From: Candidatus Binatia bacterium
Lineage (GTDB): Bacteria > Desulfobacterota > Binatia > Bin18
DNA length: 64,000 bases
Direction: 5' to 3'
NCBI GenBank assembly: GCA_963664395.2
Contig: OY761159.2
Coordinates: forward strand, 3,392,001-3,456,000
Shown here: piece after piece, positions 6,346 to 38,163 of the stretch
Layout: each line of letters opens with the position of its first letter
Numbering within the stretch: the stretch's first letter is position 1
The notes under the pieces: generated by a model
Seen by the model: only the letters and a program-made list of their open reading frames with translations
Told to the model about the DNA's origin: nothing
Database searches by the model: none
Position numbers and translations under genes: made by a program

Positions 6346-7017
6346 TTATGACCCGTCGCGTTTCTGTCCCCAGGTGTCCCAGTGAGTCAGTTGGGCGGCC
6401 GGAATACGCCGGGCTGCTTTGAAATCCGTGCCCGTATAGTAGGCTACGGGCAAAAGCACGCACTGTGTCACGCTATCGGGAATATTGAGCAGCTTGGCTG
6501 CTTCGTCGGCATGTTTGAGATGAACTGTGGTCCAACAGCAGCCAAGACCCCGCGCGCGGGCGGCCAGCATAAACGACCAGGCCGCCGGCAGAATTGAGCC
6601 ATAGGCCGTGGCCTGATCGAAAAGTGGCACGTCGCGGACGTGATCCTCGATGCAGAACAGCACCTGGACCGGAACTTCATGCAGATGGTTGACCAGATAG
6701 GCGGCTGAGTCGATCATGCGTTGGGCTTCGGTCGAGGCGGGTCCTGTGGTCCCATACGTTGCCTCATCGGCCTGCTCCCAGTAGGACTCAAAAGCGTGTT
6801 TGTAGAGTCTGGCGATACCAGCCCGTTTGTCCGCATCGCGAATAACCACAAAGCGCCATTTCTGTGTATTGGTTGCCGAGGGGCTCTGCAACGCAACTTC
6901 CAGGCATTCCTCGATCAACTCCGGTGGGACCGGACGGGCGAGATCAAGGCGTTTTCGTATGGAGCGCGTGGTGGTTAAGAGCTTGTCACACATACCCAGG
7001 TCCAAATCCGTCTTCAT
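6346..7017 (-). CDS. Nitroreductase family protein
   Basis: TTRSIRK, SPSATNTQKWRF, ARARGLGCCWT. Confidence 0.9.
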   Translation of the reverse strand: MKTDLDLGMCDKLLTTTRSIRKRLDLARPVPPELIEECLEVALQSPSATNTQKWRFVVIRDADKRAGIARLYKHAFESYWEQADEATYGTTGPASTEAQRMIDSAAYLVNHLHEVPVQVLFCIEDHVRDVPLFDQATAYGSILPAAWSFMLAARARGLGCCWTTVHLKHADEAAKLLNIPDSVTQCVLLPVAYYTGTDFKAARRIPAAQLTHWDTWGQKRDGS

Positions 7018-7077
7018 ACGTCACCTCTGGCCGGAGAGAATCACAAAGCGTCCGGGGGAACAACTCGCTTCCTCCTA

Positions 7078-7137
7078 GAAGCGTGGCCATGTGACGGACT
7101 TGGCCGCGCTTATTTGCGGGCTGGAAGCCCATGCTCC
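7078..7137. repeat. REP-like palindromic repeat (gggcttccagcccgc family); related copies at ~21473-21493 and ~50173-50223
   Basis: Reverse complement matches tgggcttccagcccgcaa(a)taagcgcggcca...atggccacgc at 50179-50220. Confidence 0.75.
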
Positions 7138-7161
7138 TACAGGAATGATGCGTTACTGGTG

Positions 7162-7198
7162 TTGACAAATGAAATTGAAAATGATTTTCAATTTCATT
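7162..7198 (+). promoter_or_regulatory. TTGACA -35 element followed by an extended Fur-type box
   Basis: TTGACA at 7162-7167; perfect 15-1-15 palindrome aatgaaattgaaaat-g-attttcaatttcatt (7168-7198) with a Fur-like core. Confidence 0.8.
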
Positions 7199-7405
7199 AT
7201 GAGTTCGGGTATTCATCCTTCTCCTAACCTGGTCTTAAACCAAAAGGGCCGGGAAAGTCGCTGCCTGTGCGGCAATTTGCTTGCTCGCCTGGGCCCCGAT
7301 GGCGTGGAACTCAAATGTCGCCGTTGCAAGCGGGTAGTAGTCATTCCCTGGGGAAGCTCTTCAACTTGGCACGGCGTAACACTTCAGCTCCCTGAGTCAC
7401 ACTGA
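7199..7405 (+). CDS. Com-like (phage Mu Com family) zinc-ribbon microprotein
   Basis: RCLCGNLLARL...VELKCRRCKR pattern. Confidence 0.7.
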   Translation: MSSGIHPSPNLVLNQKGRESRCLCGNLLARLGPDGVELKCRRCKRVVVIPWGSSSTWHGVTLQLPESH

Positions 7406-7564
7406 ACGGCTTAAACCCACCAAGGCAGTTGAATCAAATCCGGAAGGAGGTGAGGACGGAGGCGACCTACCGGCAAACAGTATGAGACACAAGCGGCCCG
7501 AGGAAAACAGCCCAGCGCCCATCCACAATCGATGACACAATCGATGACATAGAGGAGACGCGTA

Positions 7565-8995
7565 ATGATACGGCAAACAGTATGGACGCTGGGCATATGG
7601 GCACTCGTCCTGGGCATTCCCACGGGCGGCCATGCCGCGGATGAAGCCCGGATGCTGCAACTCGAACAGCAATTGCAGACCATGCAGAAGGCTATGACAT
7701 CAATGCAGACAGAGTTGCAAAGCCTGCGGTCCGCACACAAGCAGGAACGGGAACAGGAGCAGGAACAGACCCGCCGACGGGATGTGTTGGCCGAAGAAGT
7801 GGACAAGCTGCGCACCAGCCTGACCTTGCCCGACTTCACACCCCTCAGCATGGAAGACAGAAAATACGGCCTGGGACCGGCAGCGTCCAAGGTGTATGGC
7901 GTTGCGCAGGGCTTATCGATCGGTGGCTATGGCGAAGCCTATTACCGCAAGGACGTGAGTGACAAGACGCGCAGCGACCGCGACACCACCGACTATCTGC
8001 GCTTCGTGCTCTACACTGGCTATAAGTTCTCCGACCGCATCATTCTCAACGCCGAGTTGGAGTTCGAGCACGCCTCGACCAGCACCGGCGGGTCGGTGTC
8101 AGTCGAGTTCGCCTATCTGGATTTTCTGATGTACGAGTGGGCCAATTTTCGGGCCGGCATGTTGCTGGCACCCATGGGTATCGTCAACGAGTTGCACGAG
8201 CCGGTGTTTTTCAACGGCGTGGAGCGGCCCGAGGTCGAGCGGCGCATCATCCCCTCGACCTGGCGCGAGAACGGCGTCGGCATCTTCGGTGAGCTGCTGC
8301 CCGGCCTGGAATACCGTGTCTACGGCATGAATGCCCTCAAGGGGGTTTCGGAATCCAGCGGCGGTGCGTCGCTCAATTTCAAGGAGCACTATCGCAGCAC
8401 GCGCCAGAAGGGCGGCGAGGCCCTGGCCGAGGACATCGCCTTTGTGGCCCGCCTGGATTACTCTCCCATATTGAACGCCACGTTCGGCGGCTCGGTGTAT
8501 ACCGGCAAGTCCAGCCACGACCAGCAGTACGTAGACGACTCCGGCAGCAAGGTCGATTACCCGGACGCGCGGCTGACCATCTGGGAGCTGCACGCCCTGT
8601 ACAGCCTGCGAGGGCTGGAGGCGCGCGCCCTGTTCGCCATGTCGCATCTGAACGACACGGACGAACTCAACCGCATCGGCGGCGGCGGCAAGATCGCCAA
8701 GGAGATGTACGGCTTCTACACCGAGCTGGCCTACGACGTCATGCCTTGGCTGCTGGGGACTACCGAACAGCAAGTGTCGCCCTTTGTGCGTTTCTCCTAT
8801 ATTGACCAGCACGCCGAGATGGCCGGCGACTGGGACGCCCAGGGTCGGTACGAGCACCGCATCTGGACCACCGGCGTCAGCTATAAACCCCACCCGAACG
8901 TGGTGCTCAAGGTGGATTATCGCAATTTTGACACCGTGGATAACGACCACGAGCGCGAAGACGAGGTGAATTTTGGTCTCGGATTTGTCTTTTAG
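7565..8995 (+). CDS. Outer-membrane porin with N-terminal coiled coil
   Basis: GAGGAG RBS, signal peptide, coiled coil, LSIGGYGE, ELEFEH, HEP, IIPSTWRE motifs, terminal Phe. Confidence 0.85.
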   Translation: MIRQTVWTLGIWALVLGIPTGGHAADEARMLQLEQQLQTMQKAMTSMQTELQSLRSAHKQEREQEQEQTRRRDVLAEEVDKLRTSLTLPDFTPLSMEDRKYGLGPAASKVYGVAQGLSIGGYGEAYYRKDVSDKTRSDRDTTDYLRFVLYTGYKFSDRIILNAELEFEHASTSTGGSVSVEFAYLDFLMYEWANFRAGMLLAPMGIVNELHEPVFFNGVERPEVERRIIPSTWRENGVGIFGELLPGLEYRVYGMNALKGVSESSGGASLNFKEHYRSTRQKGGEALAEDIAFVARLDYSPILNATFGGSVYTGKSSHDQQYVDDSGSKVDYPDARLTIWELHALYSLRGLEARALFAMSHLNDTDELNRIGGGGKIAKEMYGFYTELAYDVMPWLLGTTEQQVSPFVRFSYIDQHAEMAGDWDAQGRYEHRIWTTGVSYKPHPNVVLKVDYRNFDTVDNDHEREDEVNFGLGFVF

Positions 8996-9025
8996 GGCCG
9001 GTGCGCCGGCCCTTGCCTGGGTGCT

Positions 9026-9565
9026 ATGCGTCGAGCAGTGATTATCTGTGCCGCGGTATTGCTGTGCAGTACCGCCAGCGTCCACGCCCTGGTGTTGTAT
9101 TCAAAGGAGGAAGCTTTGCAGATCGCGTTTCCCCAGGCCGACCGTATTGAGACGCAAACGTTCTACCTGACGCAGGAGCAGGTCGAGCGGGTTGAGGTGC
9201 TGTCCCGCGCGCCGGTCGATTCCAAGCTGGCCACCTTTCACGTCGGCCATACGGCCGGCGCTGTGCAGGGCTATGCCTTTATTGAGACGCATACTGTTCG
9301 CACCTTTCCGGAAACATTTCTGATTGTGGTCTCGCCCGACGGCCGGCTGCAAAAACTCCTGGTCCTGGCCTTTTATGAGCCGCCCGAATACCTGCCGTCG
9401 GAGCGCTGGTTGCAACAGTTTTACCAGAAGCAACTGACGCCCTCGCTGCGATTGCGCCAAGACATCCACGGTATTATGGGCTCCACCCTGACCGCTCAGG
9501 CCGCTACCCGAGGCGTGCGGAAAGTCCTGACCCTTTTTCGGATTTTGATTCAGGAGAAAAAATAG
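9026..9565 (+). CDS. Exported FMN-binding (RnfG/NqrC-like) flavinylation substrate
   Basis: Signal peptide; WLQQF...DIHGIMGSTLT resembles the DxxSGAT flavinylation motif; linked to apbE. Confidence 0.75.
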   Translation: MRRAVIICAAVLLCSTASVHALVLYSKEEALQIAFPQADRIETQTFYLTQEQVERVEVLSRAPVDSKLATFHVGHTAGAVQGYAFIETHTVRTFPETFLIVVSPDGRLQKLLVLAFYEPPEYLPSERWLQQFYQKQLTPSLRLRQDIHGIMGSTLTAQAATRGVRKVLTLFRILIQEKK

Positions 9566-9566
9566 C

Positions 9567-10139
9567 GTGCGCTTTGTGATTACCGGCGAGTGGTCCAAAA
9601 ACCGGCTGCTCCAACTCATCATCGTCATCTTCATCATCTATGTCATCGGCCTGTGGCTGACGAACGCACTTTTATATTTTCAGAAGATGGACCTGACCTA
9701 TGTGTCGGTGACGGAATACTATCTGGGGTCGGAAGAGCGTTTTCTTCAGCCGCGCAGCTATCAGGGCATGCTGGAAGTCTCGCACTTTCATTTATTCGCG
9801 ATGGGGCTGCTACTGCTCACGCTGACCCATCTCATGCTGTTTGTGCCTGTCTCCTGGAACCTGAAGGCCTGGCTGATTATCATTCCTTTTTTTTCCGCCC
9901 TGACCGATGAGGGCAGCGGCTGGCTGGTGCGCTTTGTCCATCCCGGCTTTGCCTATCTGAAAATTGCGGGTTTTCTCGCCCTGGAAATCAGCCTGGCCGT
10001 GCTGGTCGTGATCTGCCTGTGGTCTATCTTTCGTGGTTCGCCAGAGCACTACCGACAGTCGAAGCCGGCCGCCGGGCGAGGGGACACGACCGATGAGGAA
10101 AATGTCGGCCTGGGGGCCGCAGGGGAGTTGGTGGAATGA
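9567..10139 (+). CDS. 4-TM membrane protein with intramembrane histidines
   Basis: Hydrophobic helices; EVSHFHLFAM and LTHLM motifs. Confidence 0.75.
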   Translation: MRFVITGEWSKNRLLQLIIVIFIIYVIGLWLTNALLYFQKMDLTYVSVTEYYLGSEERFLQPRSYQGMLEVSHFHLFAMGLLLLTLTHLMLFVPVSWNLKAWLIIIPFFSALTDEGSGWLVRFVHPGFAYLKIAGFLALEISLAVLVVICLWSIFRGSPEHYRQSKPAAGRGDTTDEENVGLGAAGELVE

Positions 10140-11140
10140 TGAGGGGTTGGGGATTGGGGGTTGGGGGTTGGACGATTGTTGGGATCGTCAGCCTCCTGGT
10201 TTTGGGCGGTCCTGTCCGGGCGTGCGAGACCGATGGCCGGTATATTATGGGTACGGTCTTCCAGGCAACGCTGTGTCAGGCAAAACAGCCGGATGTGAAC
10301 CCTGTTTGGCACGACGTTTTTACAACTACGCAGCGCTTTGACGCTCTCTTCAGCACCTATGCTCCGCACAGCCCACTGAGCCAACTGAACGCGCGGGCCG
10401 GACAAGGACTTCAGGCTGTTCCGGCCGAAGTGGTCGATATTCTTCGTCTCTCGCAGCGCTACGCGGAACTGACCAACGGGGCGTTTGATATTACGGTTCG
10501 GCCCCTCCTGACCTTATGGCGACAGGCGGCAACGCGGCCAACCGCGGCGACTATTACCCGTACCCTGCTGTCCGTTGGGAGTCATAAGCTGCAATTTGCC
10601 GCGCCCCATCAAGTTGGCCTCTCTGCTCAGGGCATGGCGCTGGACCTGGGGGGTATCGGCAAAGGCTATGCGCTCGATCAGGTCGCAAAACAACTCCGCG
10701 AACAGCGGGTGACAAACGCCTTGCTCAACTTTGGGCAGAGTAGTCTGTGGGCGCTGGGTCGGCCGGGCGCTGGGGAGGGCTGGCGGTTGTTGTTACGTCA
10801 GCCGAATGGAGAGGCCGTAGGGGTTGCCACGTTCTCGGATCAAGCCATTTCCGTATCCAGTAGTCTGGGCCAGAGTATGCAGGTCGAAGGGCAGCGCTAC
10901 GGCCATATTATTGATCCCCGGACCGGCCGGCCCGTACAGCGCGATCTGCTGGCCTGCATTGTGGCTCCGAGTGCGGCTCAAGCCGAGGCCCTGAGCACCG
11001 CGCTCTTGATTTTAGGCGAAAATGAAGGACTCGATCTCATTGAACGACTCGATGGGGTCGAAGGACTCTTACGCGAAGCACACGGCACACAGTGGATGAC
11101 AACGGGCTGGAGGCGGGTCAGCCGTTTTGTCGCATTATAG
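10136..11140 (+). CDS. apbE: FAD:protein FMN transferase
   Basis: MGT, GAFDITV, LDLGGIGKGYALD, YGHIIDPRTG, AEALSTAL. Confidence 0.92.
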   Translation: MMRGWGLGVGGWTIVGIVSLLVLGGPVRACETDGRYIMGTVFQATLCQAKQPDVNPVWHDVFTTTQRFDALFSTYAPHSPLSQLNARAGQGLQAVPAEVVDILRLSQRYAELTNGAFDITVRPLLTLWRQAATRPTAATITRTLLSVGSHKLQFAAPHQVGLSAQGMALDLGGIGKGYALDQVAKQLREQRVTNALLNFGQSSLWALGRPGAGEGWRLLLRQPNGEAVGVATFSDQAISVSSSLGQSMQVEGQRYGHIIDPRTGRPVQRDLLACIVAPSAAQAEALSTALLILGENEGLDLIERLDGVEGLLREAHGTQWMTTGWRRVSRFVAL

Positions 11141-11171
11141 TTCTGTCAGCGTACAGAGGAGGGACAAAGAC

Positions 11172-11489
11172 ATGCGCACCAACGAAATACTGACCACCAT
11201 TCCAAGCATACCTCACGGGGCATCTCCCAATGCCCCACCCGACACGGCCCTGGAGATCGCCGTGGAGACCGCGCAACAGGATGGGCAAAATGAGCAGGAA
11301 GACGGACAGCCGAGTATCGCTTTACGTCGTCTGACGTGGGGCTCGGGGTTGGGCTGGTGTCGGCAGCAAACCCTGACCCTGACTCCGGCGGAAGCCGAGG
11401 CGGTGCTCCGCGCCTTGCAAAAGAGCCGCCGCAAATGGCAGGGAGAATCTGCTACCCCCCAGGGTAAAGTCATTCCTTTTCCGGGCTAG
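11172..11489 (+). CDS. Hypothetical protein
   Basis: GAGGAGG RBS; 105-aa ORF with LRRLTWGSGLGW motif, ending KVIPFPG. Confidence 0.6.
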   Translation: MRTNEILTTIPSIPHGASPNAPPDTALEIAVETAQQDGQNEQEDGQPSIALRRLTWGSGLGWCRQQTLTLTPAEAEAVLRALQKSRRKWQGESATPQGKVIPFPG

Positions 11490-11513
11490 AGCAAATGACG
11501 CTGTGTAGCCGCC

Positions 11514-11589
11514 CGTCATTCCTGCGAAAGCAGGAATCCAGGCCCCCGACCCCCCGGCCTCTGGATGCCGGATCACGTCCGGCATCCAG
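11514..11589. repeat. Double-hairpin palindromic repeat; related copy at 23931-23999
   Basis: gtcattcctgcgaaagcaggaatccag...ctggatgccggatcacgtccggcatccag. Confidence 0.75.
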
Positions 11590-11714
11590 AGCGCGTACTG
11601 GCACGGCTACAGACTAACGTGAAACGGGCTAGATACCTCTCTCCCGCGGCACTACCGCCTGATGTATTGCTTTGTCGGCCCAGGCGTGGTCAGGAGGTCT
11701 GAAGTCTGAAAGTC

Positions 11715-12068
11715 ATGGAGGCCGGTGTGAAGAGCCCGGTTGTCATTATCGGCGCGGGACCGGCCGGGCTCACCGCCGTGTATGATCGATCCTATCAGGA
11801 GCATGTGGCCCTGATCCGTCACTATCTGGCAACGTTCCCCAATTTTCAGACGATTGGTCGGAATGGACTGCATCGCTATAATAATCAGGATCATTCAATG
11901 CTGACCGGGGTCTATGCCGCTCGCAATATTGTCGGCGGGCAGCATGATGTCTGGACGGTCAATACCGAAACCACCTATCACGAAGAAGGACAACATCCTG
12001 ACGCGCAGGCCGGAGACCGCTCGGTTCCGGTGCGGAAAGTATCCTCGCCAGGCCGGCTGTCTCCATAG
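11715..12068 (+). pseudogene. Internally deleted FAD-dependent oxidoreductase (protoporphyrinogen oxidase/UDP-galactopyranose mutase-like)
   Basis: N-terminal VVIIGAGPAGLTA joined directly to C-terminal VYD...GRNGLHRYNNQDHSMLTG. Confidence 0.8.
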
Positions 12069-12087
12069 TGCTGAAACGCCGCAGCCC

Positions 12088-12903
12088 ATGTCCGAACGCA
12101 GGTTTGGCCACATTCCAGGCTATCCGGTTGGCAGTTGTTTCGCCTCTCGCCGTGATCTCTCCAGGGCCGGGGTGCATCGAGTGCGCATCGCCGGTATTTC
12201 CGGCAGCGGGCGGGAGGGCGCGGACTCGGTTGTCCTGGCTGGCGGCTATGAAGATGGAGAGGATTATGGGCAGATGATCTTCTACACCGGCCACGGCGGT
12301 CGCGACCCGCAGACCCGCGAGCAGGTTCGTCACCAGGCACTGACCCGTGGGAATTTGTCTTTGGCCCGGAACCGATTGCACGGCCTGCCTGTTCGCGTTA
12401 TCCGTGGTGCCGGTTTTCGTTCTCCCTACTCGCCCGATTCCGGCTACCGCTATGACGGCCTGTATACGGTTGACGACTATTGGCGGGGCATTGGGCGAGC
12501 GGGCTTTTTTATTTGGCGTTTTCGGCTGGTCACAATGGGTGAAGACACAGCGCAGCAGGAACGAGTCGTGCAAGAAACACTCCATGCCCAGGAACTCAAG
12601 CAGCTCTACCACTACCACTGTCAGATATGTCGCGTCCAACTCAAAGGCCCTGCCGGGCCGTATGCCGAAGCGGGGCATATCCGCCCGCTCGAAATCCCGC
12701 ACAACGGCCCTGACACGCCGGAGAATATGCTGTGTCTATGTCCGAATTGTCATATCCTGCTGAGCATCGGCGGGGTGGGTATTGCTGATGATTTTGAGCT
12801 GATCGGGCGATCGGGGACGTTGTACGTTGATTTTCGGCACCGGATCAACATCGAGCATATGCGTTATCGGCGGCAACATTATCCGGTTGACTCTGATATG
12901 TGA
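12088..12903 (+). CDS. SRA/YDG-HNH modification-dependent (5mC) restriction endonuclease, TagI/Sco5333-like
   Basis: FGHIPG, GADSVVLAGGYED, YTGHGG, PVRVIRG, YRYDGLY; CQIC, EAGHIRPL, NMLCLCPNCH. Confidence 0.9.
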   Translation: MSERRFGHIPGYPVGSCFASRRDLSRAGVHRVRIAGISGSGREGADSVVLAGGYEDGEDYGQMIFYTGHGGRDPQTREQVRHQALTRGNLSLARNRLHGLPVRVIRGAGFRSPYSPDSGYRYDGLYTVDDYWRGIGRAGFFIWRFRLVTMGEDTAQQERVVQETLHAQELKQLYHYHCQICRVQLKGPAGPYAEAGHIRPLEIPHNGPDTPENMLCLCPNCHILLSIGGVGIADDFELIGRSGTLYVDFRHRINIEHMRYRRQHYPVDSDM

Positions 12904-12931
12904 GGAGTGCCGGCTCGAAGCCCGTAAGAAA

Positions 12932-13050
12932 TCCCCTCCTCGGAGGGGTGACGCAAAAAGGAACCCACCCCGGCCCTTCGGGCCACCCTTCCCAAGAGGG
13001 GAGTTTTTCCTATCCCCTCCTCGGAGGGGTGCCGCGGAGCGGTGGGGTGG
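12932..13050. repeat. Cluster of GC hairpin REP-like repeats; related unit at 13922-13954
   Basis: cccctcctcggaggggtg twice; ccaccccggcc...ggccaccc. Confidence 0.7.
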
Positions 13051-13090
13051 GTTCCCCCAGGTAGGAAAGAAAAAAAGGGAGAGACCAGCG

Positions 13091-13906
13091 ATGCAGGGAA
13101 ATCTACGCAAGATGAGAACGCAGCCGGGTCCGCCCGTGGGTTATCGCTTGCCGGTCGGAGAACAAGAAGTCGCCTTAAACCCTTTGCTGGGAGAGACCGT
13201 ACGTTTGACGTTTTCCGGGGAGATTCACTGTGTTGCCTGCGGGCGCAAGACCAAGAAGAGTTTCAATCAGGGCTATTGTTATCCCTGCTTTCAGAGCCTT
13301 GCGCAGTGTGACCTGTGCATCGTGAAACCTGAGCTATGCCATTATGCTCAGGGCACCTGCCGTGAGCCGGCATGGGGCGAAGCACACTGTATGCAGCCCC
13401 ACTATGTGTACCTCGCCAACTCATCCGGCCTGAAAGTCGGCATTACGCGCGGGAGTCAGATTCCGACCCGCTGGATGGATCAAGGTGCGGTACAGGCTTT
13501 GCCGATTTTTCGGGTGCAGAGCCGTTATCAGGCCGGACTGCTTGAGGTGATATTCAAGCAGCATATAGCCGATCGCACCAACTGGCAGCGCATGCTCAAG
13601 GGCGAGCCTGAATTGGCGGACTTGGCAGCCAAGCGAGACGATCTCCTTGGGCTGTGTCAGGCGAAACTGCACGACCACACACAGGCCGCCGGGGAAAGCG
13701 CACTCACGCTGCTTGAGGAGGAGGACAGCCGTTCTTTTACCTACCCCGTGCTGGAGTATCCAACCAAGGTCAAGTCACGCAATTTTGAGAAGACACCCGA
13801 GATCGAAGGCACGCTGCTGGGTATCAAGGGGCAGTACCTTATTTTTGATACCGGCGTGCTGAACGTGCGCAAGTTTGGCGGGTATGAGGTGCGGTTCGAG
13901 GGATAA
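13091..13906 (+). CDS. DUF2797 domain protein
   Basis: CVACGRKTKKSFNQGYCYPC, HYVYLANSSGLKVGITR, RWMDQGA, GIKGQYLIFD. Confidence 0.9.
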   Translation: MQGNLRKMRTQPGPPVGYRLPVGEQEVALNPLLGETVRLTFSGEIHCVACGRKTKKSFNQGYCYPCFQSLAQCDLCIVKPELCHYAQGTCREPAWGEAHCMQPHYVYLANSSGLKVGITRGSQIPTRWMDQGAVQALPIFRVQSRYQAGLLEVIFKQHIADRTNWQRMLKGEPELADLAAKRDDLLGLCQAKLHDHTQAAGESALTLLEEEDSRSFTYPVLEYPTKVKSRNFEKTPEIEGTLLGIKGQYLIFDTGVLNVRKFGGYEVRFEG

Positions 13907-36777: not shown

Positions 36778-38013
36778 TCAGCCTGGGATCATTCCAAATA
36801 CGCGTAAGAATTGAAAGACGCCCAAGCCCGTCACAATGAGCACAACCGCGCTGCCCGCCATATTGGCCAGGGGGCCGTTTGTGTACGCGCCGAGGAGATT
36901 CTCCTTATTCATGACGAACAGGAGACAGCCGGCAAGGAGGGGGAGTAAGCACGCGTTGACCGCTTGGGCAAGCAGGATAGCCATCAGCGGGTGCTGCCCA
37001 AAAAAGGCCAGCCCTGTCCCAATCAGGACGATCGCACTCCACACCAGTCGAACCTTCCCGCTATGGCCGTCTCCTGACCAGCCCAGCACCCCGGCCGTGG
37101 CATAGGCGGCGGCAAGTGGGGCGGTGACGGCACTGGTCAACCCGGCGGCAAACAGGCCGGTCGCAAAAAGGAGACGCGCGTGTGAGCCGACAAGCGGCTC
37201 AAGTTGTCTGGCTATGGAGGCGGCATTTTCCAATGGCATCCCCTGGCCAAAAAAAGCCGAGGCCGCGGTTGCGACCATGGCCAGGGTGAGAACACCACCC
37301 AGACTGATCGAGAGCAGCGTATCGGCACGTGCCTCACGCAGTGCTTGTGGAGCGCGCATTGTAGCCGGCCACTTGGCTTGGACCGTACTGGCGTGCAGAA
37401 ACAAATTGTACGGAACGACTGTGGTGCCGATCAGCGCCATCACTGTCACAAATGACCCGGGGGGTATGGTCGGGCTGAAGAAGCCGGACAAGATGTCCGA
37501 GAGTGCTGGTTGGACGAGAAGAGCCGTCAGCAGAAAGACCCCACTCATGAGCACAACGAGCAGAACCAGCACGCGCTCAATAGCCGCATACGTCCCGGAC
37601 CACAGCAACCCAAAGGCCAGACCGCCAATGAGCAGGGTCCAGGCTGAGGCCGGGAGCCCGGAGACATCGGCTAAGGCCACCGCCGCGCCAAGGATATTGC
37701 CCATCTCAAACGCGGCGTTGCCACAGCCAATGCCGATGACCACAAGGGTCAGGAGCGGGATACGGAGGAGTGGGGTCTGAATAACCGTCCGCAACGCTTC
37801 GCCTAATCCACTGCGCGCAACAACACCGAGTCGGGCCGCCATTTCTTGCAGGACGAGTGTTGCAAAAATGGAAAACCCTACCGCCCACACCAGGGCAAAC
37901 CCAAACTGTGCCCCTGCGATACTAGCGGTCGTTACGGTCCCCGGACCAATAAAGGCGGCGGCAACGAGAAACCCAGGACCAAAGAGACTCTTGCGCTGCA
38001 TGCCTGAGTCCAT
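36778..38013 (-). CDS. Nramp-family (YcsG-like) transporter
   Basis: GPGFLVAAAFIGPGTVTT, GTTVVPYNLFLH. Confidence 0.88.
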   Translation of the reverse strand: MDSGMQRKSLFGPGFLVAAAFIGPGTVTTASIAGAQFGFALVWAVGFSIFATLVLQEMAARLGVVARSGLGEALRTVIQTPLLRIPLLTLVVIGIGCGNAAFEMGNILGAAVALADVSGLPASAWTLLIGGLAFGLLWSGTYAAIERVLVLLVVLMSGVFLLTALLVQPALSDILSGFFSPTIPPGSFVTVMALIGTTVVPYNLFLHASTVQAKWPATMRAPQALREARADTLLSISLGGVLTLAMVATAASAFFGQGMPLENAASIARQLEPLVGSHARLLFATGLFAAGLTSAVTAPLAAAYATAGVLGWSGDGHSGKVRLVWSAIVLIGTGLAFFGQHPLMAILLAQAVNACLLPLLAGCLLFVMNKENLLGAYTNGPLANMAGSAVVLIVTGLGVFQFLRVFGMIPG

Positions 38014-38163
38014 AGCATGTTTATGTGGTATAGGCCGAGACAGGTGAGAGTGAACCTCCTTTTTGAGGCACACCGCACAGCCCCTGCTGAGGCAACACCG
38101 TCTCGGGAATGGTCATCGCCCGGCGCGGATGGCGCGGATAGGGCAGGCGGCCGGCCGCGCTGG

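Follow-up and report, generated by a model that had tools for sequence, protein, structure and literature searches.

What does a bacterium gain from encoding a porin, a secreted flavin mononucleotide (FMN)-binding protein, a small four-transmembrane (4-TM) protein and an ApbE flavin transferase together, downstream of one perfect palindrome? The question is raised by a locus of a Candidatus Binatia bacterium (assembly GCA_963664395.2, contig OY761159.2) that lies in a stretch of 64,000 nucleotides, positions 3,392,001 to 3,456,000 of the contig, referred to here as the window, and it centres on the 4-TM protein, a candidate route by which electrons would reach the flavin. An iron-starvation operon of a Binatia-like bacterium is the best explanation of the locus. 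With moderate confidence, we read it as an iron-acquisition module under Fur repression, built around a periplasmic flavoprotein that depends on ApbE; a protein of the Aq_1264_TM family would act as its membrane partner and the porin as the point of entry at the outer membrane. Computation established the operator and its conservation, the linkage of the genes, and the families to which the porin, the FMN-binding protein and ApbE belong; for the 4-TM protein it gave the pattern of conservation, the topology and the fusions. The elements of the locus, with six open reading frames (ORFs) on the same strand downstream of the palindrome, are as follows, in window coordinates.

7162..7167, forward strand: TTGACA, a -35-like hexamer abutting the operator (read directly).
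7168..7198, strand not applicable: perfect 31-bp palindrome, putative Fur-type operator; arms 7168-7182 and 7184-7198 of 15 nt each, 100% complementary, with a 1-nt spacer.
7199..7405, forward strand: Com-like zinc-ribbon protein, 68 aa from the ATG at 7199, CxC-x16-CxxC (from homologues in related loci).
7552..7557, forward strand: GAGGAG, ribosome-binding site of the porin, whose ATG follows after 7 nt (read directly).
7565..8995, forward strand: general-porin-like outer-membrane beta-barrel with a signal peptide and a long N-terminal helix (AlphaFold2 model and Foldseek).
9026..9565, forward strand: secreted RnfG/NqrC-like FMN-binding protein, 179 aa, predicted flavinylation site T154 (family profile against the PDB).
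9567..10139, forward strand: 4-TM inner-membrane protein, 190 aa, Pfam PF27139 (Aq_1264_TM), candidate transmembrane electron-input subunit (homologue domains, AlphaFold2).
10136..11140, forward strand: ApbE, flavin adenine dinucleotide (FAD):protein FMN transferase with an N-terminal hydrophobic signal or anchor (Pfam PF02424).
11127..11489, forward strand: conserved ORF, 120 aa, overlapping the apbE stop by 14 nt (tblastn).

A first-pass annotation of this sequence had described a perfect 31-bp Fur-like palindrome abutting TTGACA, and both elements are present as described. By our own arithmetic, about 6e-5 such perfect palindromes would be expected per 64 kb of random sequence. The 15-bp core of the palindrome, TGAAAATGATTTTCA (7176-7190), occurs once in the window without mismatch, and the four further matches there, each with three mismatches, are at chance level. 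The operator has the likeness of a Fur box, being an AT-rich 7-1-7 inverted repeat that abuts the TTGACA hexamer. Compared with TGATAAT-N-ATTATCA, which we take to be the 7-1-7 Fur consensus, the window core has two mismatches, and TGATAATGATTCTCA, as the operator reads in close Binatia relatives, has one.

For comparison, one genome per species was scanned (the genome_contigs species-representative collection), giving 566 pattern-matched stretches, 560 of which encode a relative; counts of loci given below refer to the best 80 of these 560. Their titles name Candidatus Binatia, Myxococcota and "Deltaproteobacteria", with a few others, and the nearest relatives of the window among them are Binatia (94% identity). 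Enough upstream sequence for evaluation is available at 72 loci, and at 59 of these the core recurs, with at most two mismatches, within 600 bp upstream of the first gene. The background rate is 17 matches in 741,495 positions, or about 0.01 expected per 490 bp. Alignment of 61 sites gave the 27-bp consensus TGAAAtTGAaaaTgATTtTCAATTTCA, in which conservation extends past the core that was searched for: among the 12 flanking positions, none of them selected for, 11 are conserved at 80% or above and the twelfth is T in 43 of the 61 sites. The TTGACA hexamer is conserved in more than half of the same sites.

Other iron-acquisition genes nearby share this box. Matching boxes precede FeoB (locus L017), FTR1 with P19 (L049), Peripla_BP_2 (L020), and imelysin with or without a di-haem oxidoreductase, DHOR (L021, L024, L031). 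In 21 of the 80 loci (e.g., L040 905-3898) the gene immediately preceding the operator is a member of the fur family. The best NCBIfam scores of these genes are to Fur equivalogs (1e-28), followed by PerR (1e-22) and Zur (1e-8), all below the curated cut-offs; no fur gene was found within the 64-kb window itself. Zur, PerR or another Fur-family regulator is a less likely binder, given that FeoB, FTR1/P19 and imelysin genes stand behind the box as well and that the adjoining regulators score best as Fur. The sequence evidence thus supports the palindrome as a conserved Fur-type operator, as the first-pass annotation had supposed, and the 59 boxes at 72 loci, the fur gene at 21 loci and the boxes before FeoB, FTR1-P19 and imelysin together make Fur-type iron control, and an iron-related role of the cluster, well supported. 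The protein that occupies the palindrome would presumably be Fur.

In the window and at six further loci the first ATG lies 23-24 nt from the start of the core, so the operator would have to overlap the promoter; from the ATG spacing alone, the first gene may be leaderless.

Two further observations concern the boxes and their regulator. At three loci the boxes stand in tandem, in two or three copies 35-43 bp apart (L020 5239-5331, before Peripla_BP_2; L031 8594-8686, before imelysin; L049 8528-8577, before FTR1/P19). Eight of the 80 loci carry a divergent MATE efflux gene next to fur and the cluster, which would be a candidate flavin exporter by its likeness to Bfe; the Shewanella FAD exporter Bfe is of the MATE class.

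The linkage between the porin, FMN-binding, 4-TM and ApbE genes is conserved. The order porin-FMN_bind-4TM-ApbE is found at 40 of the 80 loci, the same order headed by a Com-like gene at 26, FMN_bind-4TM-ApbE at nine, and other or truncated orders at five. An FMN_bind gene is directly upstream of the 4-TM gene at 79 loci and ApbE directly downstream of it at 76, while a porin is upstream at 69. Median identity across the loci is highest for the 4-TM protein (71%), followed by FMN_bind (52%), ApbE (48%) and the porin (46%). A search for annotated relatives on plasmids found none. Within the window the FMN_bind stop at 9565 is followed by the 4-TM start at 9567; apbE shares 4 nt with the 4-TM gene before it and 14 nt with the last ORF after it. 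This bears out the earlier description of the FMN-binding, 4-TM and apbE genes as abutting or overlapping. The same description had named the porin next after the palindrome. The gene set stands, but the adjacency does not: the Com-like ORF, which was not listed there, starts right at the end of the palindrome and separates the box from the porin.

The FMN-binding protein is best recognised through its family profile rather than through the single sequence. Alone, it scores below threshold against Pfam FMN_bind (E 0.092; 13.8 bits, cut-off 22), and PF04205 is present in several homologues. When a profile built from 30 members of the family was searched against the PDB, it matched RnfG (9eri_G, E 5e-11; 7zc6_G, E 1.8e-4) with the flavinylated threonine aligned, which supports a relationship to RnfG. 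The flavinylation motif reads DIHGI[AM]G[SA]T154L[TS]; of 112 sequences, 110 retain T154 and 111 retain G152. It aligns with the ...TGST... of RnfG, and is [S/T]GA[S/T]-like with A or M instead of S/T at the first position. T154 is the predicted site of covalent flavin attachment.

ApbE matches Pfam PF02424 with E 8.4e-67 (225.9 bits) over profile positions 1-265 of 266. Because its score against the NCBIfam ApbE equivalog (1.3e-37, 129.5 bits) falls below the cut-off of 498, we regard it as a family member and not as the E. coli-type equivalog. A hydrophobic N-terminal segment is visible in the translation and points to a putative extracytosolic location.

For the porin, sequence models returned only sub-threshold matches, e.g., Pfam OMP_b-brl, and the assignment comes from structure prediction. 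The AlphaFold2 model, built from 33 sequences (predicted local distance difference test score, pLDDT, 75.5; predicted template-modelling score, pTM, 0.71), has a 57-residue N-terminal helix (residues 29-85) followed by about 16 long strands as assigned by DSSP. Foldseek against the PDB returned 314 chains at E ≤ 0.001, headed by OmpK36, OmpC and OmpF at 1e-13 with probability 1.00 and TM-scores (target) of 0.65-0.71. On this model, the protein is a barrel of the OmpC/OmpF-like general-diffusion-porin type. That the porin might itself be a flavinylation substrate, as DUF3570 is, was ruled out, since no conserved [ST]GA[ST] motif is present in 65 sequences.

The 4-TM protein is the most conserved component and belongs to an uncharacterised family. 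At E ≤ 0.001 it has 3,240 homologues, and all 120 of those listed carry PF27139.1; the Atlas clusters of the family, looked up through a homologue, bear the name 'Aq_1264 transmembrane helical domain-containing protein', and 99-100% of their members carry PF27139. The assignment of the window protein to PF27139 rests on these homologue domains and Atlas clusters, not on a direct model score. At the same threshold, 519 relatives were found among 1.84 billion cluster representatives. A literature search for "aq1264" returned no matching paper.

Conservation was assessed in an alignment of 33 diverse family members with 26-75% identity to the window protein. G54 is kept in all 33, H73, H75 and H88 in 32 each, E70 and Y52 in 31, K100 in 30 and K132 in 29; the SHFH and TH histidines singled out in the first-pass annotation are thus strongly conserved. 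The AlphaFold2 model (pLDDT 90, pTM 0.80) has helices at 13-40, 65-90, 97-123 and 126-156, with a short helix and a hairpin in the first loop. E70, H73, H75 and H88 all lie on the second transmembrane helix (TM2), whose face between E70/H73 and H88 is hydrophobic (F77, L84).

Natural fusions provide the topology. Four of 12 long family members tested are 4TM-ApbE fusions (P0241, P0243, P0246, P0277) that retain all conserved residues, and in P0241, P0243 and P0246 a basic linker and one extra hydrophobic segment precede the ApbE domain. Since these fusions need an extra hydrophobic segment to bring ApbE to its extracytoplasmic site of action, the 4-TM domain is predicted to have both termini in the cytoplasm, a topology with which the charge counts agree weakly. 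E70, H73, H75 and K132 would then lie in the half towards the periplasm, with H88 and K100 at the end that faces the cytoplasm. Two other distant members bear different C-terminal additions, a DtxR-type metal-binding domain plus FeoA in P0288 and a PilZ domain in P0262, each of which could be either a real fusion or a gene-call artefact.

Tandem duplicates account for about 13 of the 150 representatives listed. In these forms the N-terminal half keeps only the equivalents of E70 and H73, and the C-terminal half only those of H75 and H88. Because natural duplicates split the conserved residues between their halves in this way, we take the working unit to be a dimer, in which one H73-type and one H75-type histidine from different halves are read as acting together and one H88 as sufficing.

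One genomic context separates the FMN_bind-4TM pair from the remainder of the cluster. In the genome that also holds L031, a second such pair (L030 4409-7107) has neither ApbE nor a Fur-like box and is flanked by genes for a cytochrome c and a cytochrome c'. This single case points to periplasmic electron transfer.

Taken together, these features suggest the following sequence of events. A Fur-type regulator would bind the palindrome, where it overlaps the promoter, and repress the operon. On derepression, ApbE would attach FMN covalently to Thr154 of the secreted RnfG-like protein. The Aq_1264_TM protein, probably dimeric, would hold a cofactor through H73/H75 at the periplasmic face and H88 at the cytoplasmic face, with haem b as the leading candidate, and would pass electrons from the membrane quinol pool to the flavin of the RnfG-like protein. 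Substrate would be admitted across the outer membrane by the OmpC/OmpF-like porin, and the flavoprotein would reduce Fe(III) chelates to Fe(II), which separate transporters (FeoB, FTR1/P19 or Nramp) would import. The Com-like zinc-ribbon protein would be an accessory, possibly a post-transcriptional regulator. That the 4-TM protein is a haem-based electron conduit is a plausible inference by analogy with other flavinylation systems; the nature of its cofactor, the direction of electron flow and the substrate are those that this analogy would predict.

In its fullest form the proposal is more tentative, and we regard it as possible rather than likely: Aq_1264_TM would be a sixth electron-transfer class for ApbE-flavinylated proteins, a dimer that holds its cofactor (probably haem b) between the two TM2 helices via H73/H75, with H88 on the cytoplasmic side, and that together with the porin and the Com-like protein would form a Fur-controlled, TonB-independent route of reductive iron uptake, widespread in Binatia, Myxococcota and other Gram-negative bacteria.

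Several results weigh against the reading as an iron-acquisition module, most of them bearing on the cofactor. The first-pass annotation had proposed that the 4-TM protein is an unrecognised haem-b/quinol donor, and a comparison of its model with cytochrome b folds does not bear this out: Foldseek against the PDB (release to April 2026) gave no match at E ≤ 0.001 (best E 0.5, TM-score ≤ 0.5), and the weak matches at E 0.5-1 (a FAT domain, LTC4 synthase and DgkA) are generic four-helix bundles. FoxB (7ABW) is named as a solved structure in the part of PMC11334425 available to us. The family profile matched no PDB sequence, and none of the 33 members matched the Pfam models for cytochrome b-type, PepSY_TM, ferric-reductase or DUF4405 proteins at E ≤ 10. 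Only three histidines are conserved, all on TM2, whereas the usual design has four histidines and two haems. Given these null results from Foldseek, profile and Pfam searches and the absence of the four-histidine pattern, the family is not a detectable relative of the flavinylation-associated cytochromes. Two classical bis-histidine haem sites are impossible in the tandem relatives, because only three histidines are kept in total, and a glutamate with two histidines near the periplasmic face suits a metal-ion site just as well.

The remaining difficulties concern the operon as a whole. The cluster encodes no cytoplasmic electron-donor domain, and the window operon no inner-membrane iron transporter. 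The porin is not obligatory, since the nine loci with the order FMN_bind-4TM-ApbE carry the core genes without an adjoining porin. At 13 of the 72 evaluable loci no box is found at two or fewer mismatches, although eight of these have one at three. A promoter scan found no canonical -10 hexamer pairing with the TTGACA at 7162-7167, and a canonical sigma-70 promoter at the box was rejected on that result.

Dimerisation bears on the histidine count, since a homodimer would supply six. According to the part of PMC11334425 available to us, FezC builds its haem b sites through homodimerisation, and by analogy a haem bridged between two 4-TM protomers is possible. The conserved lysines, one at the level of each histidine site, would suit haem propionates.

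If haem is set aside, the same residues could serve a metal ion directly. The 4-TM protein would then be an inner-membrane permease or entry site for Fe(II) or other divalent metals, with E70, H73 and H75 binding the metal and H88 lying further along, and the electron donor of the flavoprotein would be encoded elsewhere. The glutamate and histidines conserved on one transmembrane helix, together with two conserved lysines, fit this, as do the lack of any other inner-membrane transporter in the window operon, the DtxR-type and FeoA domains fused to the relative P0288, and a model that resembles no known cytochrome. An extracytoplasmic FMN-binding domain, however, needs a transmembrane source of electrons, and the 4-TM protein is its sole constant inner-membrane companion (79 of 80 loci). 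The fusion partner in the four long forms is ApbE, not a transport domain; the L030 pair, without a box, lies between cytochrome c genes; the hydrophobic TM2 face from E70/H73 to H88 offers no polar path for an ion; and in some genomes FeoB or FTR1/P19 adjoins the cluster. We consider a permease unlikely.

The ApbE fusions admit another interpretation, namely that the 4-TM protein serves flavinylation itself, either by exporting FAD or another flavin for ApbE or by anchoring ApbE and its substrate at the membrane. Such fusions occur in several distant lineages, the window's 4-TM gene runs 4 nt into apbE, and the route by which FAD reaches periplasmic ApbE is unsettled in most bacteria. The L030 pair, however, has no adjoining ApbE, and where a MATE gene stands beside fur and the cluster it could export flavin instead. 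The extreme conservation of three histidines and one glutamate would be unusual for a mere anchor, and a nucleotide would be exported by rather few helices if there were only four, although dimerisation would bring the number to eight. A helper of flavinylation is given only a small chance.

Fur regulons commonly hold iron-free substitutes for iron proteins. That the cluster is such an iron-sparing device, with a flavin carrier and membrane partner replacing haem or iron-sulfur carriers in a respiratory or detoxifying pathway and the porin serving another substrate, is the most doubtful reading and quite improbable: it would accommodate the L030 copy between cytochrome c and cytochrome c' genes and a variability of gene clusters consistent with redundancy between flavinylated proteins and cytochromes (Meheust et al., PMC8238504, in the part available to us), but box-bearing copies repeatedly adjoin FeoB, FTR1/P19, imelysin, a TonB-domain protein or fur and not respiratory enzymes, a dedicated porin at 69 of 80 loci points to solute exchange with the outside, and a haem-binding 4-TM protein would leave the device anything but iron-free.

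The iron-acquisition module remains our preferred reading, and two genes of the operon stand outside its core. The first, the Com-like gene, has a homologue at 29 of the 80 loci, and in 28 cases the porin comes next after it; of the 16 closest Binatia loci, 15 lack the gene. The four cysteines of the protein and the core CRCxCGxLLAR...GVELKCRRCKR are conserved across the 29 loci, the cysteines also in the window. JGI labels many of its 523 database homologues "phage FluMu protein Com", and the nearest Atlas clusters bear the name Com family (0.93-0.94), with a link to PF10122 that scores only 0.89. Mu Com is a translational activator. The window protein shares with the phage Mu Com family (COG4416/PF10122) the CxC...CxxC zinc ribbon and the naming of its homologues, but it has no significant Pfam match, is chromosomal in a non-prophage context, and heads an iron-regulated operon.

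Between the Com-like gene and the porin lies a leader of about 160 nt (7403-7570) that folds no better than its shuffled counterparts (z -0.01). With no Rfam match in 6500-12000 at E ≤ 1, a riboswitch or other structured leader was ruled out. Positions 7524-7547 of the forward strand, immediately ahead of the ribosome-binding site of the porin, consist of the 12-nt unit CACAATCGATGA repeated exactly in tandem, with an ATCGAT palindrome in each of the two copies.

The second, the ORF at 11127-11489, may be a sixth operon gene, judging from its overlap and conservation: a homologue occupies the same position at 23 of the 80 loci, with a median identity of 78% (range 35-82%), and no Pfam or NCBIfam model matches it.

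Of the neighbouring genes, a nitroreductase-family flavoprotein (6346-7017, reverse strand; Pfam 5e-27, with weak BluB-like matches) is divergent from the operon. Its start is about 150 bp from the operator, and both units may therefore share Fur control; the pairing is kept at 17 of the 80 loci (15 full length), all of them closer relatives. Downstream of the operon lie an SRA (SAD_SRA)-HNH fusion of the modified-DNA-dependent restriction endonuclease type (11914-12903, forward strand), whose position is kept at 18 of the 80 loci, and then a DUF2797 protein (12827-13906, forward strand). The sole Fe/Mn importer of the inner membrane that was recognised in the window is an Nramp-family divalent metal transporter (36778-38073, reverse strand; Pfam 1e-82), 26 kb off; at up to three mismatches, no Fur-like box turned up in its vicinity.

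Periplasmic proteins flavinylated by ApbE need electrons from across the inner membrane, and PF27139, a very widespread family of unusually high conservation, emerges from the cluster as a possible further supplier. A family without an assigned function thereby gains a testable role. The cluster also suggests that, in some Gram-negative bacteria, the reduction of iron in the periplasm may be fed by a plain porin and not by an energised TonB receptor. If so, the porin would provide a cheap route for the uptake of weakly chelated Fe(III), and an annotation would be gained for thousands of hypothetical proteins of bacteria from soil and sediment, for which metagenomes are almost the only source.

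How far the cluster departs from known systems can be judged against the flavinylation surveys, of which the portions available to us are compared here. Five classes of membrane partners for ApbE-flavinylated proteins, and in addition DUF4405, are described in PMC8238504 and PMC11334425. Within those portions, which do not extend to the supplementary cluster list of PMC8238504, neither survey describes a membrane partner of this kind, and the word "porin" occurs 0 times in the text of PMC8238504 to hand; literature searches, including a term search of the accessible text of a 2025 ApbE review (PMC12052999), returned nothing closer. To this extent the cluster is not identical to a described flavinylation system.

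By analogy, the cluster follows the logic of the PepSY-like/DUF2271 and MsrQ-like systems (PMC8238504) and of the Caulobacter operon CC_3059-3063 (PMC3751524), a Fur-repressed ApbE/DUF2271/PepSY unit according to the accessible parts of PMC3751524 and PMC8238504. With the PepSY-like/DUF2271/DUF4198/ApbE clusters (Meheust et al. 2021, PMC8238504; PMC3751524) it would have in common apbE, a periplasmic substrate and one small inner-membrane partner, as well as Fur or iron-limitation control, iron-transporter neighbours and a proposed reduction of Fe(III) in the periplasm. Compared with these clusters as they are described there, Aq_1264_TM (PF27139) replaces PepSY_TM, an RnfG-like FMN_bind protein replaces DUF2271, DUF4198 is missing, a general-type porin replaces the TonB-dependent receptor, and a Com-like gene leads the operon.

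The MsrQ-like, DUF4405 and homodimeric FezC proteins (Huang et al. 2024, PMC11334425, in the part available) are likewise small helical inner-membrane neighbours of apbE whose transmembrane histidines are among their most conserved residues. The haem sites that FezC forms across its homodimer are a precedent for a family with natural tandem duplicates such as Aq_1264_TM. Against these proteins, Aq_1264_TM has four helices and not six, and three histidines on one helix and not four on two; it has no detected similarity to them in sequence or fold, and its haem binding is putative.

A link between an extracytosolic FMN-binding protein and iron transport is also seen in P19/FTR1 clusters with an FMN-binding or thioredoxin-like gene (PMC8238504, in the part available). 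At L049 the present cluster lies directly before the box-preceded FTR1-P19 pair. In the window and at most loci, by contrast with those clusters, P19/FTR1 does not adjoin, and the genes form their own transcription unit with a porin and ApbE.

Finally, with RnfG/NqrC the FMN-binding protein shares the profile match at E 5e-11 and the aligned flavinylated-threonine motif, but unlike the Rnf and Nqr complexes the cluster is without their other subunits, the window protein has a signal-peptide-like N-terminus, and it is paired with a 4-TM protein of another family. The differences from the known systems lie in the membrane family, the substrate domain, the use of a porin instead of a TonB receptor, and the presence of a Com-like gene.

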